From Escherichia coli (GTDB lineage: Bacteria > Pseudomonadota > Gammaproteobacteria > Enterobacterales > Enterobacteriaceae), in NCBI RefSeq assembly GCF_003334305.1, contig NZ_QOWS01000023.1: 64,000 nt of DNA; one strand, written 5' to 3'. Under the pieces are notes generated by a model, which saw only the letters and a program-made list of their open reading frames with translations, was not told the origin of the DNA and searched no databases. Positions 3,984-62,866 of this stretch are shown here, piece after piece. Within the stretch, counting starts at the first letter, position 1. Every line of letters starts with the position of its first letter. The position numbers were made by a program, and so were the translations under genes.

Positions 3984-4100
3984 TATATGCCCCTTATGGA
4001 ATTTTTAGTATTTAGCCGTCCAGATGTTTACACATCCATAATTGGCGGTTACTGTATATTCCTCAAGCGCAAATTATTCATGCCGAAGTGAAGGACTTTC
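3984..4100. promoter_or_regulatory. metE-metR divergent control region (expected MetR and MetJ operator sites)
   Basis: 117-bp divergent intergenic region between metE and metR start codons; site positions not resolved by eye. Confidence 0.45.
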
Positions 4101-5054
4101 ATGATCGAAGTAAAACACCTGAAAACGCTACAAGCGTTGCGGAACTGCGGCTCTCTCGCAGCCGCTGCGGCGACGTTGCATCAGACGCAATCCGCCCTGT
4201 CTCACCAGTTTAGCGATCTGGAACAACGCCTTGGCTTCCGGCTATTTGTGCGTAAGAGCCAGCCGCTACGCTTTACACCGCAGGGAGAAATCCTGTTGCA
4301 ACTGGCAAACCAGGTGCTGCCGCAAATTAGCCAGGCACTGCAAGCCTGCAATGAACCGCAGCAGACGCGTCTGCGCATTGCCATTGAGTGCCATAGCTGT
4401 ATTCAGTGGCTGACGCCCGCGTTAGAAAATTTCCATAAGAACTGGCCGCAGGTAGAGATGGATTTTAAATCGGGCGTGACGTTTGACCCGCAGCCCGCGT
4501 TGCAACAGGGCGAGCTGGATCTGGTGATGACCTCCGATATCCTGCCGCGCAGTGGCCTGCATTATTCGCCGATGTTCGACTATGAAGTGCGTCTGGTGTT
4601 AGCACCTGACCATCCACTGGCGGCGAAAACGCGAATTACACCGGAAGATCTCGCCAGCGAGACGCTGTTGATTTATCCGGTGCAGCGTAGTCGACTGGAT
4701 GTCTGGCGGCATTTTCTTCAGCCGGCAGGCGTCAGCCCGTCACTGAAAAGCGTCGATAACACCTTATTGTTGATTCAGATGGTTGCCGCGCGGATGGGTA
4801 TTGCCGCGCTACCGCATTGGGTAGTAGAGAGTTTTGAGCGCCAGGGTCTGGTGGTGACCAAAACCCTGGGCGAAGGCTTGTGGAGCCGACTGTACGCCGC
4901 CGTGCGCGATGGCGAGCAGCGTCAGCCAGTTACGGAAGCGTTTATTCGCTCAGCGCGCAATCACGCCTGCGATCATCTGCCGTTTGTGAAGAGCGCGGAG
5001 CGACCCACTTACGATGCACCCACAGTGAGGCCAGGATCACCAGCGCGCCTGTAA
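4101..5054 (+). CDS. metR: LysR-family transcriptional activator MetR (317 aa)
   Basis: [48 protein letters not shown]... with LysR-type N-terminal HTH; recognised as MetR. Confidence 0.95.
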
Positions 5055-58136: not shown

Positions 58137-60158
58137 TTATTTCCCTCGTTTTGCCGCCATCATCGCTTTCAGATTCGCCAGATGGCTTTGCCCTTTCAGC
58201 ATCCGTTCTTCGGCGCTGACCACTTTGCGCTCCTGTTCCCAAATCAGATCATCCTGCGGCAGCTCCAGCAAAAAGCGGCTCGGCTCCGGGCGCACCAGCT
58301 CGCCGTACTGACGGCGTTCTTTACACAGCGTAAAGGTCAATTCCTTCTGGGCGCGGGTAATGCCGACATAGGCCAGCCGCCGCTCCTCATCGATATTATC
58401 TTCATCGATGCTGCTCTGGTGCGGCAAAAACCCTTCTTCCATACCGACCATGTAGACATAAGGAAACTCCAGCCCTTTTGACGCGTGCAGAGTCATCAGT
58501 TGCACCTGATCCAGCTCTTCTTCACTCTCACCACGCTCCATCATGTCGCGCAAAGTAAAGCGCGTCACCACCTGGGTGAGCGTCATCGGCTCATCCAGTT
58601 CACTGCCTTCCAGCATCTCCGTCATCCAGCTAAACAGTTGGTTGACGTTCTTCATGCGCATTTCGGCGGCTTTCGGGCTGGGCGATGTTTCGTACAGCCA
58701 GGATTCATAATCCATGCCATGGATCAGATCACGCACCGCAGCAATCGGCTCCCGCTCCGCCAGGCGCTGGATTTCTGCCAACCAGTGAGTGAAGCGGGTC
58801 AATGCTTCATAACCACGTCCGCTAAGCGTCTGACTCAGGCCCATATCAAAGCTGGCGGTAAACATGCTTTTATTGCGCGTCATCGCCCACTCACCCAGCT
58901 TTTTCAGCGTCGCCGGGCCAATCTCTCGCTTCGGCGTGTTAACGATACGCAGAAATGCGCTGTCATCGTCCGGGTTAGTCAGCACGCGCAGATAAGCCAG
59001 CAAGTCCTTGATTTCAGGACGAGAGAAAAACGACGTACCACCAGAAATTTTGTACGGGATGCGGTTTTGCATCAGGAATTTTTCAAACACCCGCGACTGA
59101 TGGTTACCGCGATAAAGAATGGCGTAATCTTTGTACTGCGTTTTATTGACGAAGTGATGGGCGATCAGCTCGCCAGTAACGCGCTCGGCTTCATGTTCCT
59201 CGTTATTCGCGCTTAAAACTTTTAGCTCTGTGCCGTAACCCAGTTCGGAGAACAGACGCTTTTCAAAGACGTGCGGATTATTGGCGATCAGGATGTTCGC
59301 CGCTTTCAAAATACGTCCGGAAGAGCGGTAGTTCTGCTCAAGCTTAATCACCTTCAGCGCCGGAAAATCCTGACTCAGCAGCACCAGGTTTTGTGGACGT
59401 GCGCCGCGCCAGGAGTAGATCGACTGGTCGTCATCGCCCACCACGGTAAAGCGCGCGCGGCTGCCCACCAGCAGTTTCACCAGCTCATACTGGCTGGTGT
59501 TGGTGTCCTGATACTCATCCACCAGCAGATAGCGAATTTTGTTCTGCCAGCGCTCGCGGACTTCTTCATTGCGTTGCAGCAGCAACGTCGGCAATAAAAT
59601 CAGATCATCGAAGTCGAGAACGTTACAGGCTTTCAGGTGTGCATCATACAGCCCATAACAATGGGCAAAAATACGGTCCCGCTCGCCAATCGCACTGGCT
59701 GCCGCCTGGGACGGTGTTTTGAGATCGTTCTTCCAGTTAGAGATGGTCGAAATCAACTGTTGCAGGAGAACTTTGTCATCTTCAATCAGCCCTTCGGTCA
59801 ACTCTTTGAGCAACGCCAGCTGATCGGTATCGTCAAACAGCGAAAAGTTCGCCTTCATCCCCAGCGCCGCATACTCACGCTTGATGATATCCAGCCCCAG
59901 CGTGTGGAAGGTGGAGATCATCAGCCCACGCGCCTCTTTGCGACCCAGCGTCTGCCCGACACGCTCTTTCATCTCGCGCGCCGCCTTATTGGTAAAGGTC
60001 ACCGCCGCGATATGTCGCGCCTGATAACCGCAACCGCGGATCAGATGAGCGATTTTATTGGTGATAACACGAGTTTTACCGGAACCCGCGCCCGCCAGCA
60101 CCAGGCAGGGGCCGGTAACGAATTCGACAGCTTGTTGTTGGCCGGGGTTTAGACGCAT
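58137..60158 (-). CDS. rep: ATP-dependent DNA helicase Rep (673 aa)
   Basis: ORF track 58137-60209; ATG at 60158 gives [42 protein letters not shown]... Confidence 0.96.
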
Positions 60159-60374
60159 AGGTGTATTGCTCAATCTTCGAACGGGGGGAGGATTGTAGCA
60201 GAATCGCATTTGAATGTGACCGCGTGTAAGCCGCTAACCGGTTGGCTGCGGATGTTTAAATCAGAGAGAGAAGACCGAAACCGGAGTTCATCGTGAATCC
60301 ATTAGACTTAGAAAATATCGGGTCGTAACGTTGTGTTATTACTTTTTCAGAGTTTACTAAGGAGAGGTGTACTC

Positions 60375-60824
60375 GTGGCGATTAATTTCAGTCCTAAGGT
60401 TGGTGAAATACTGGAATGCAACTTTGGTAACTATCCTGTTAGCCAGAATGGACAGTTCAGCACCACGTATTACGATGGCCGCATTCCTCCTGAAATGATA
60501 AAAAACAGGTTAGTTGTCGTGCTCAACGGAAAAATTAATGGCAACGCATGTATCGTCATTCCATTATCAACCACTCGCGATCATGACAAGTTAAATCGTG
60601 GAATGCATGTTGAAATAGCCAGTAATGTTATCAATGGCCTGCAATTCTTTGATCAGCAGATTCGTTGGGCCAAAGCCGACCTGGTACAACAAGTCAGTCG
60701 AAACCGATTAAATAGAGCAAGGACTTACAGAGGGTATCTTAATCAATGTTTGCCACATGAGTTGGTTGCAGACATACAGAGGGCGGTCATCAAGTCAATC
60801 AATGCCATATCGCTCATAAATTGA
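60375..60824 (+). CDS. yifN: PemK/MazF-like toxin-fold protein (yifN-like), ~149 aa from GTG at 60375; ORF track starts 60333
   Basis: ggagag Shine-Dalgarno then GTG; translation MAINFSPKVGEILECNFG...RLVVVLNGKINGNACIVIPLSTT... resembles the PemK/MazF pattern of a Gly-rich N-terminal strand and a hydrophobic V-I-P-L-[ST] core; I recall yifN at this position in K-12. Confidence 0.55.
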   Translation: MAINFSPKVGEILECNFGNYPVSQNGQFSTTYYDGRIPPEMIKNRLVVVLNGKINGNACIVIPLSTTRDHDKLNRGMHVEIASNVINGLQFFDQQIRWAKADLVQQVSRNRLNRARTYRGYLNQCLPHELVADIQRAVIKSINAISLIN

Positions 60825-60901
60825 CAATAAAATCACCATCCCCGATAATGACTTTGTAGCCCATAGAGGCCCTAAGTTTTCTCCCCTTGAGGGACCTGCG
60901 A

Positions 60902-60924
60902 AGCCCGGATTTTCCGGGCTTTTG
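60902..60924 (+). terminator. rho-independent terminator after the yifN-like ORF
   Basis: agcccgga tttt ccgggct hairpin followed by TTT. Confidence 0.5.
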
Positions 60925-60998
60925 CCATATATGTACCAGCCCCTCCCTGACTGACAATTACGTTAGCATCTGCGGATCATGCTAAAATCGCCGCCTGA

Positions 60999-61304
<306 letters not shown>

Positions 61305-61308
61305 TAGC

Positions 61309-61340
61309 AAGGCCTTCTCCAGGAGAAGGCCTTGAGTGTT
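61309..61340. terminator. stem-loop between convergent ppiC and ilvC
   Basis: aaggccttctcc agg agaaggcctt hairpin followed by gtgtttt. Confidence 0.5.
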
Positions 61341-61390
61341 TTCTCCCTCTCCCTGTGGGAGAGGGTCGGGGTGAGGGCATCAGCGCGCAC

Positions 61391-62866
61391 TTAACCCGCA
61401 ACAGCAATACGTTTCATATCTGTCATATAGCCGCGCAGTTTCTTACCTACCTGCTCAATCGCATGGCTGCGAATCGCTTCGTTCACATCACGCAGTTGCG
61501 CGTTATCTACCGCGCCTTCCGGAATAGCTTTACCCAAGTCGCCCGGTTGCAGCTCTGCCATAAACGGTTTCAGCAACGGCACACAAGCGTAAGAGAACAG
61601 ATAGTTACCGTACTCAGCGGTATCAGAGATAACCACGTTCATTTCGTACAGACGCTTACGGGCGATGGTGTTGGCAATCAGCGGCAGCTCGTGCAGTGAT
61701 TCATAATATGCAGACTCTTCAATGATGCCGGAATCGACCATGGTTTCGAACGCCAGTTCAACGCCCGCTTTCACCATCGCGATCATCAGTACGCCTTTAT
61801 CGAAGTACTCCTGCTCGCCGATTTTGCCTTCATACTGCGGCGCGGTTTCGAAGGCGGTTTTGCCGGTCTCTTCACGCCAGGTCAGCAGTTTCTTATCATC
61901 GTTGGCCCAGTCCGCCATCATACCGGAGGAGAATTCGCCGGAGATGATGTCGTCCATATGTTTCTGGAACAGGGGTGCCATGATCTCTTTCAGCTGTTCA
62001 GACAGCGCGTAAGCACGCAGTTTCGCCGGGTTAGAGAGACGGTCCATCATCAGGGTGATGCCGCCCTGCTTCAGCGCTTCGGTGATGGTTTCCCAACCGA
62101 ACTGAATTAGTTTTTCTGCGTATGCCGGATCGGTGCCCTCTTCCACCAGCTTGTCGAAGCACAGCAGCGAGCCAGCCTGCAACATACCGCACAGGATGGT
62201 TTGCTCACCCATCAGGTCAGATTTCACTTCCGCAACGAAGGACGATTCCAGCACGCCCGCACGGTGACCACCGGTTGCTGCCGCCCATGCTTTAGCGATC
62301 GCCATACCTTCGCCTTTCGGATCGTTTTCCGGGTGAACGGCAATCAGCGTCGGTACGCCGAATCCACGTTTGTACTCTTCACGCACTTCGGTGCCAGGGC
62401 ATTTCGGCGCAACCATGACTACGGTGATATCTTTACGGATCTGCTCGCCCACTTCGACGATGTTGAAACCGTGCGAGTAACCCAGCGCCGCGCCGTCTTT
62501 CATCAGTGGCTGTACGGTGCGCACTACATCAGAGTGCTGCTTGTCCGGCGTCAGGTTAACCACCAGATCCGCCTGCGGGATCAGTTCTTCGTAAGTACCA
62601 ACTTTAAAACCGTTTTCGGTCGCTTTACGCCAGGACGCGCGCTTCTCGGCAATCGCTTCTTTACGCAGAGCGTAGGAGATATCGAGACCAGAATCACGCA
62701 TGTTCAGGCCCTGGTTCAGCCCCTGTGCGCCACAGCCGACGATAACCACTTTTTTACCCTGAAGGTAGCTCGCGCCGTCGGCGAATTCGTCGCGCCCCAT
62801 AAAGCGACATTTGCCCAGCTGTGCCAGCTGCTGGCGCAGGTTCAGTGTATTGAAGTAGTTAGCCAT
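61391..62866 (-). CDS. ilvC: ketol-acid reductoisomerase (491 aa)
   Basis: ORF track 61391-63016; ATG at 62866 gives [49 protein letters not shown]... Confidence 0.97.

Follow-up and report, generated by a model that had tools for sequence, protein, structure and literature searches.

A 64,000-nucleotide stretch of Escherichia coli DNA (contig NZ_QOWS01000023.1, referred to as the window) was analyzed with a focus on yifN and the sequence that follows it. This part of the window corresponds to the rep/yifN/ppiC/ilvC neighbourhood of E. coli. The yifN gene encodes a predicted endoribonuclease of the MazF/PemK fold, and downstream of it lies a gene for a structured small RNA of ~71 nt. The longest open reading frame (ORF) at yifN occupies positions 60333-60824 of the plus strand (163 residues, GTG start). 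A preliminary description of the locus had placed the yifN start at GTG 60375, preceded by a Shine-Dalgarno sequence. This assignment is borne out by the spacing of the Shine-Dalgarno sequence, by the RefSeq start of the coding sequence in an identical E. coli genome (WP_000996696.1, 149 residues), and by the N-termini of 25 homologues, which read MAINF or MPINF. RefSeq gives the product the name 'type II toxin-antitoxin system PemK/MazF family toxin' and annotates the toxin alone.

The small RNA gene begins ~30 nt past the yifN stop codon. A covariance model built from 25 copies of the RNA (model R1) has a single match in the window, with a score of 83 bits and an E-value of 7e-18. The gene is preceded by a sigma-70 promoter whose -35 box, TTGACA, includes the TGA stop codon of yifN, and the 5' end of the RNA, GUAGCCC, is conserved. 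An equivalent promoter was present at 40 of 40 distinct RNA copies, with the -10 box ending 6-7 nt 5' of the RNA start. The promoter match averages 9.6 of 12 positions over these copies, as compared to 5.3 ± 1.2 at random positions, of which 0.4% reach 9. The hairpin that the preliminary description took for the terminator of yifN itself stands 73 nt past the stop codon and is part of this separate gene; it ends the small RNA and probably also the transcripts that read through from yifN. A search of Rfam 15 returned no match at E ≤ 1 in window positions 59900-61400, and in 11 related loci nothing reached the gathering score where the RNA lies. With its promoter, its terminator, its covarying helices, and a reported transcript (see below), the element is a structured non-coding RNA gene.

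Table 1. Features of the yifN locus and the downstream small RNA gene (window coordinates).
Feature	Position	Strand	Basis
yifN Shine-Dalgarno sequence, AAGGAGAGG	60359..60367	+	7-nt spacer to GTG 60375; read from sequence
yifN coding sequence, 149 residues plus stop, intact, predicted MazF/PemK-fold endoribonuclease	60375..60824	+	
Codon His70, intact here; site of the 1-bp deletion in the K-12 yifN pseudogene	60582..60584	+	alignment
Sigma-70 promoter of the small RNA: TTGACA 60821-60826, 17 nt, GATAAT 60844-60849	60821..60849	+	11 of 12 consensus positions
Small RNA gene, ~71 nt, candidate RNA partner/antitoxin of YifN (ecr3777)	60856..60926	+	covariance model R1
Hairpin H1: GCC / loop CAUAGA / GGC	60859..60870	+	pairs kept in 98% of cells
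Hairpin H2: UCCC / loop CUUGA / GGGA	60882..60894	+	compensatory changes in 3 of 4 pairs
Terminator stem-loop GCGAAGCCCGG-AUUUU-CCGGGCUUUUGC and U-tract	60898..60926	+	9 of 11 pairs with compensatory changes, 42 distinct copies

A single-sequence fold in support of the terminator gave -27.8 kcal/mol (z -2.7). The model derived from comparison consists of three helices, namely H1, H2, and an 11-bp terminator stem, and across 42 distinct copies 95.7% of cells are paired. Compensatory double changes were found in 14 of the 18 pairs and amount to 74 cells, whereas shuffled data gave 17 ± 3 and 0 of 500 shuffles reached as high. A shift of the pairing partners by one to three columns makes this signal break down. 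Considered alone, H1 and H2 contain 13 double-change cells in five of their seven pairs, where 2.3 are expected; examples are the G-C to C-G flips of H1 in loci L034, L037, and L038 (related loci are given L numbers) and, in H2, the changes from C-G to U-A in L012 and L015 and to G-C in L028, L030, and L034. The loops of H1 and H2 both end in U-N-G-A followed by a G-rich stem arm and are closed by G-C pairs. This common UNGA ending indicates that the RNA carries two similar units. A long-range fold of the 5' half, in which GCCC pairs with GGGAC and GAGG with CCUU, is thermodynamically possible and was set aside for want of covariation support; it may be an alternative conformer. As a separate observation, many of the RNA promoters have dyad symmetry over the -35 box (TTGACGAtttCGTCAA, TTGACatgagcGTCAA, TTGACAtgcgTGTCAA, TTGATatctAATCAA), seen in L008 (5460-5500), L016 (5445-5485), L111, L029, and L061, and weakly in the window at 60821-60837. 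The dyad could be an operator for a regulator.

The same transcript has been reported from E. coli K-12. Using RNA-seq, Romero et al. (2014, PMC4681348) described ecr3777(d+), a 79-nt small RNA (sRNA) in the ppiC-yifO intergenic region, on the yifN strand and downstream of that gene, and counted it among five new E. coli sRNAs with positive northern blots. It was reported as an expressed RNA, without a structure, a distribution, a link to YifN, or a function. According to the same paper, it was also detected by Conway et al. (2014). Window positions 60862-60891 and probe ORL43 of PMC4681348 are exact reverse complements. The supplement lists ORL43 under ecr2775(u+), and the probe listed there under ecr3777(d+) has no match to the window; the probe labels look swapped. 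No later paper on ecr3777 was found in open-access papers and bioRxiv. A claim of two YifN isoforms from ribosome profiling, made in a Ribo-RET preprint (10.1101/520783), names yifN in the text and yjfN in the figure legend, which is probably a typographical error, and was not used.

The RNA is better conserved than the gene it follows. The 71-nt RNAs of E. coli and Superficieibacter are distinguished by 2 positions, and the synonymous divergence (dS) of their yifN genes is 1.75, a saturated value. More generally, the RNA element is 75-90% identical where the YifN proteins are 45-60% identical. With the 200 nt after yifN as the query, blastn matched ~30 loci, over 30-90 nt past the stop codon, in Pantoea, Photorhabdus, Xenorhabdus, Serratia, Pseudomonas, and Legionellaceae and on three plasmids. 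The region upstream of yifN, when used as the query, matched the closest relatives and nothing else. Model R1 matches beside YifN in ~40 loci, including the pCAR1, IncX1, and P. savastanoi plasmids, and the arrangement of the two genes varies among them. In Shewanella (L027 724-799, minus strand) the RNA gene lies on the opposite strand directly after the yifN stop codon. In Herbaspirillum, which has two copies (L033 3982-4060 and 4139-4219, minus strand), and in Massilia (L031 4136-4214, minus strand), the RNA is upstream of yifN on the opposite strand, and the gene of a winged-helix protein common to both genera stands between the RNA and a longer YifN (214-227 residues). Given this inverted or upstream placement, the RNA is an independent gene and more than a 3' untranslated region (3' UTR).

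The linkage also holds when the RNA is the starting point. A DNA pattern made from the RNA was run over a metagenome collection and gave 35 matches, 33 of which are strong model hits (71-91 bits). In 33 of 33, a yifN homologue, either intact or frameshifted, lies directly upstream on the same strand. Most of these copies are from E. coli and add little diversity; about 10 are on contigs that are Pantoea-like or Pseudomonas-like. With the RNA as the query, blastn retrieved 97 plasmid records, and in every record that was cross-checked the RNA is located ~60-120 nt downstream of the YifN hit. Nearly all of the listed plasmid records have no feature under the match, and two have a 'hypothetical protein' only. 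A loose version of the RNA pattern, run over viral contigs, gave 15 matches, none of which is real. The linkage of the RNA with YifN is solid: it is near-obligate and extends across Proteobacteria, on chromosomes and on plasmids. The gene that the preliminary description had presented as an orphan is thus accompanied by an RNA gene.

The description of the protein as PemK/MazF-like holds up. Both of the peptides that had been singled out, KVGEILECNFG and VVVLNGKINGNACIVIPLSTT, are found in the YifN translation. Residues 37-141 match the Pfam family PemK_toxin (PF02452) with an E-value of 1.4e-10 and 41.7 bits, most of the listed homologues bear a precomputed PF02452 domain, and the JGI family name is "uncharacterized protein YifN (PemK superfamily)". 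YifN has the SH3-like barrel of the MazF/Kid/CcdB fold. Neither a single-sequence search with YifN nor its family profile found MazF in the PDB, which was found by fold comparison alone. The NCBIfam profiles and the PADLOC defence-system models gave no match to YifN, and PHROGs gave one family of unknown function (phrog_15698, E-value 1.7e-31). Family members of ~150 residues occur in Enterobacterales, Pseudomonas, Aeromonas, Shewanella, Xanthomonas, Legionellaceae, and Burkholderiales. At least 133 plasmid records also contain the family, including pCAR1, P. savastanoi 1448A, and many E. coli plasmids, of which at least one has an IncX1 replicon.

A check of the catalytic residues was carried out with a joint MAFFT alignment of 29 sequences, comprising the YifN clade, E. 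coli MazF (3nfc_A, EcMazF), and Bacillus subtilis MazF (4me7_A, BsMazF). E40 and R45 of YifN are invariant in this alignment and coincide with E24/R29 of EcMazF and E20/R25 of BsMazF, and S65 is aligned with the catalytic T52 (EcMazF) or T48 (BsMazF). An hhalign comparison gave the same register of catalytic residues at a probability of 6%. For intact yifN, the ratio of nonsynonymous to synonymous substitution rates (dN/dS) is 0.033 within E. coli and 0.05 in comparison to Superficieibacter; the comparison value for ppiC is 0.056. Intact alleles are under strong purifying selection. Judging by the conserved residues, yifN, where intact, most likely encodes an active MazF-type RNase. Apart from the MazF relationship, residues 84-123 of YifN weakly resemble residues 47-86 of the phage P1 protein DarA (9ukm_I), with E-values of 1.2 by sequence and 0.29 by family profile, and this stretch coincides with the invariant YifN residues W98, S108, R111, and L112. 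DarA is missing from the fold-search lists, and the similarity is therefore probably due to chance.

A conventional partner for such a protein would be a small protein encoded next to it. No candidate ORF upstream of or overlapping yifN is present in the window, in agreement with the preliminary description. The search was extended to 54 homologous loci from GTDB, with one genome per species, in which flanking ORFs of at least 40 residues were called and clustered. A protein antitoxin was rejected, as no flanking cluster is common across genera, and what is common beyond close relatives consists solely of antisense artefacts that overlap yifN. Where an upstream ORF lies close to the gene (14 loci), these ORFs show no relationship among themselves, except for one winged helix-turn-helix protein in Massilia and Herbaspirillum, and a scan of seven adjacent upstream ORFs against antitoxin models gave no match. 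The absence of a nearby protein antitoxin holds for the whole YifN family. The genomic contexts of yifN are otherwise diverse. Among the 54 loci, the position between rep and ppiC recurs outside Escherichia in Superficieibacter only; since this synteny is limited to the two genera, we regard it as positional and rejected a functional link between yifN and rep. Elsewhere, yifN is found beside mutS (Photorhabdus), beside a metQ-like gene (Serratia), and adjoining plasmid rep or parC-like genes in Shewanella and in a gammaproteobacterial metagenome-assembled genome.

The yifN allele in the window is intact, and the preliminary description was right about the K-12 gene, which is a pseudogene. In a K-12 MG1655-derived strain, RefSeq labels yifN 'frameshifted', and our alignment places the 1-bp deletion at window position 60584. 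Tblastn alignments of yifN are likewise broken at residue 70/71 in 9 metagenome contigs, and in E. coli and Shigella yifN is often truncated or frameshifted. An 881-bp query from rep to ppiC (window 60150-61030) is present in 4019 of 5426 complete E. coli genomes. The ~1400 genomes without yifN, Nissle 1917 among them, are also without the RNA and both intergenic regions. In these genomes a segment of ~860 bp, from the rep start to the ppiC ribosome-binding site (window 60150-61022 by comparison with Nissle, L063), is swapped for ~60 unrelated bases, a replacement and not a clean insertion or deletion. Nissle 1917 and other strains among these genomes are presumably members of phylogroup B2. 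In the RefSeq record of E. coli UTAK-14 (L004 1-3537), ~3.5 kb upstream of ppiC is unannotated, and the yifN region was not found there.

A similar layout was observed at more distant loci. YifN-like genes with 26-33% identity from Alphaproteobacteria and one planctomycete (L040, L042, L044-L047, L049-L051, L053, L056, and L058, scanned ~0-170 nt past the stop codon) all have a sigma-70 promoter matching at least 9 of 12 positions, with the -35 box placed 15-23 nt ahead of the stop codon; in two loci it falls at the stop codon itself. Here the promoter precedes a 110-125-nt multi-hairpin RNA with a terminator, and the motifs 'YUNAAGWC' and 'CAAGC' are held in common. The alignment of these longer RNAs with MAFFT and RNAalifold is poor, and the case for homology between this apparent second RNA class and the short one is only suggestive. 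The like layout suggests that the partnership of YifN with an RNA is old. In Vibrio sonorensis (L048 5549-5589), a distant YifN-like gene (33% identity, 181 residues) is followed by two exact tandem 17-nt repeats, AGCCGCAAGGCAAGTTT, each of which consists of a GCC-GCAA-GGC hairpin and AAGUUU, and a terminator follows the pair. We also note that an ORF of 67 residues overlaps the start of the YifN-like gene in L048; it has no NCBIfam match.

Compared with known systems, YifN is most similar to the toxins of MazEF, PemIK (Kis-Kid), and ChpBIK, with which it has in common the fold, the PF02452 domain, the positions of the catalytic Glu, Arg, and Thr/Ser, and an occurrence on both plasmids and chromosomes. 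It differs from MazF-type toxins in being ~40 residues longer, with a 16-residue insertion between beta1 and beta2 and a second insertion at residues 68-96. The locus differs from these type II systems in that none of the 54 loci has an upstream antitoxin of the MazE/PemI type, and the yifN locus has no adjacent protein antitoxin of the MazE/PemI, AbrB, ribbon-helix-helix, or similar kind; the constant neighbour is the downstream RNA gene. In type III systems (ToxIN, CptIN, TenpIN, AbiQ/antiQ), the antitoxin is an array of tandem 34-37-nt repeats upstream of the toxin gene, transcribed in one operon through a leaky terminator and processed by the toxin. In contrast, the YifN RNA is a single unit of ~71 nt that is transcribed from its own promoter, either downstream of yifN or on the opposite strand. 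YifN resembles MazF more than ToxN or CptN, falls outside the type III toxin families (ToxN/AbiQ, CptN, TenpN), and has no match among their PADLOC models. A search for a type III-like repeat array upstream of yifN found none; tandem units were seen in L048 only, downstream of the YifN-like gene. The locus would function most like type III, without belonging to it. The sRNAs of the MicL and DapZ class are alike in two respects: the promoter overlaps the upstream coding sequence at its 3' end, and the sRNA and the mRNA have one terminator in common. They differ in that they act by Hfq-dependent base-pairing and have no co-inherited protein, whereas the YifN RNA stays with YifN even where it is inverted or upstream.

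We propose that yifN and the small RNA gene form one two-gene module of a toxin and an RNA antitoxin, and we put the chance that the RNA neutralizes YifN by binding it directly at about even. The proposal is based on the MazF fold with its catalytic positions, the absence of a protein partner, a co-inherited and strongly promoted RNA with two similar units, the location of the module beside plasmid replication and partition genes, and the structural relationship of type III toxins. Plasmid copies of the module adjoin rep and parC-like genes, as addiction modules do. In such a module, RNA made from its own strong promoter would take the place of a protein as the neutralizing partner. It would attach to the YifN protein itself, in the manner of type III RNA antitoxins, and each hairpin unit may occupy one active site of a YifN dimer. 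Continuous synthesis of the RNA would hold the RNase silent; upon plasmid loss, or when a phage halts host transcription, YifN would be freed and growth arrest would follow. The toxicity of YifN, the direct RNA-protein contact, its stoichiometry, and the biological role are what we infer from this evidence. The preliminary description had allowed that a conserved adjacent antitoxin might have been overlooked. A conserved adjacent partner does exist in the form of the RNA gene, its role as antitoxin is our proposal, and a protein partner was not found. The observation of the preliminary description is thereby confirmed and its interpretation partly supported.

Several points weigh against an RNA antitoxin. 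To our knowledge, no member of the MazF/PemK family has been shown to use one, and both the toxicity of YifN and its binding to the RNA are predictions. The mapping of the catalytic residues comes from low-probability profile alignments (hhalign, 6%) and the MAFFT alignment, and the structure model of YifN is of low confidence in the beta1-beta2 insertion (residues 20-42). As for the RNA, type III antitoxins are upstream repeat arrays, but this one is a single downstream copy with a promoter to itself. The pair counts given above favour the model, as alignment A4 was fitted to the model structure; a MAFFT alignment made before the model shows covariation in the same direction. Classic antitoxins are labile, but the long G+C-rich stem of the terminator points to a stable RNA. 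Moreover, K-12 retains and expresses the RNA despite a dead yifN, and either the RNA may have another role or the K-12 frameshift may simply be recent.

The main alternative reverses the roles of the two partners. Here the RNA would be the functional product, for example a regulatory sRNA acting in trans on plasmid or host genes, and YifN would be its dedicated processing, binding, or stabilizing factor. The linkage evidence fits this explanation equally well, the RNA is built like an sRNA with a U-rich linker and a terminator with a U-tail, its promoter lies over the end of the upstream ORF as in 3'-UTR-type sRNAs, and expression in K-12 occurs in the absence of a functional YifN. However, the conserved MazF catalytic positions favour an active nuclease over a mere binder, and the plasmid sites beside rep and par genes, as well as the repeated loss of the gene in E. 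coli by pseudogenization or deletion, are in line with an addiction or toxin element. We identified no complementarity to a target and consider the explanation unlikely, at perhaps one chance in five. A type I-like antitoxin, in which the RNA pairs with yifN mRNA (for instance at the Shine-Dalgarno sequence, by means of a C/U-rich stretch of the RNA) and prevents its translation or brings about its decay, has about half that chance. The RNA segment UCUCCCCUU is partly complementary to AAGGAGAGG, and trans-encoded RNA antitoxins of non-peptide toxins exist, as in SymR/SymE and RalA/RalR. But the predicted duplex is no stronger with the cognate initiation region (-22.4 kcal/mol) than with non-cognate ones (-23.0 kcal/mol), with a mean z of -0.04 relative to shuffled sequences; the whole yifN mRNA is no better (mean z -0.01, n = 25); and the C-rich stretch is the 5' arm of H2, which is maintained by compensatory changes. 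The complementarity to the toxin mRNA that defines type I antitoxins was thus not found in excess in either the initiation region or the whole mRNA, and antisense control of yifN was rejected.

The two remaining explanations do without a working partnership between the RNA and YifN. YifN could be a true orphan, either solitary or domesticated: a MazF-like RNase for which MazE or ChpS provides neutralization in trans, or which is not neutralized at all, with the RNA as an unrelated neighbour or terminator. The lack of a nearby protein antitoxin and the RefSeq annotation of a toxin alone are in keeping with this. Yet the RNA has its own promoter and follows YifN through unrelated contexts, on both strands and on plasmids, and it is better conserved than the protein gene, so that a chance neighbourhood is not credible; we regard a true orphan as very unlikely. 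Finally, the hairpins could be DNA structures of a recombination or transposition site that mobilizes a one-gene cassette. YifN does occur as a single-gene insertion at differing sites across genera, and covarying hairpins also mark attC-like and IS200/IS605-type sites. This explanation is the least probable and barely worth entertaining, as every copy has a correctly spaced sigma-70 promoter at a fixed distance ahead of it and is followed by a U-tract terminator, G-U pairs are confined to the transcribed strand, and the boundaries of presence and absence in E. coli do not match the element. A transcript of ~79 nt is also made in vivo (PMC4681348).

Two further observations concern the surroundings of YifN-like genes. 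In the Pseudomonas locus L016, a C4 antisense RNA (Rfam RF01695, 84 bits) is located at 4095-4181, ~800 nt upstream of the YifN gene. C4 antisense RNA is the immunity RNA of P1/P7-type phages, and its presence suggests a prophage or plasmid setting. The Vibrio phage 10N.239.311.D05_PE001 (Vinavirales; L062 4376-5420) carries a YifN-like gene with 27% identity at the extreme end of its linear genome, 19 nt after a gene for a LexA/S24-peptidase-like repressor; the downstream region is lost at the genome end.

The gene, its annotation, the K-12 pseudogene, and the existence of the transcript are already known. What we have not found reported is the RNA as a conserved structured gene whose linkage to the YifN clade is obligate throughout Proteobacteria and on plasmids, and which stands in the place of an antitoxin. 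Whether this amounts to a new, widespread class of toxin-antitoxin system, in which a MazF/PemK endoribonuclease is neutralized by a dedicated, separately transcribed two-hairpin RNA, with a second class of longer RNAs in Alphaproteobacteria, we judge slightly less probable than the contrary. The module is directly testable in E. coli, with the intact allele described here and with K-12 as a natural toxin-null strain that retains the RNA, and yifN is carried by about three quarters of complete E. coli genomes and by many conjugative plasmids. MazF and PemK are textbook type II toxins defined by their protein antitoxins, and solitary copies are usually dismissed as orphans or as decaying. If the RNA is the antidote, the boundary between type II and type III would blur, annotations of "orphan toxins" would need to be checked for an RNA, ecr3777 would gain a function, and researchers would have a simple pair of an RNase and an RNA inhibitor to study and to use as a tool. 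Even if the RNA should prove not to be an antitoxin, a MazF-fold protein paired with a conserved, dedicated RNA would be new to biology.

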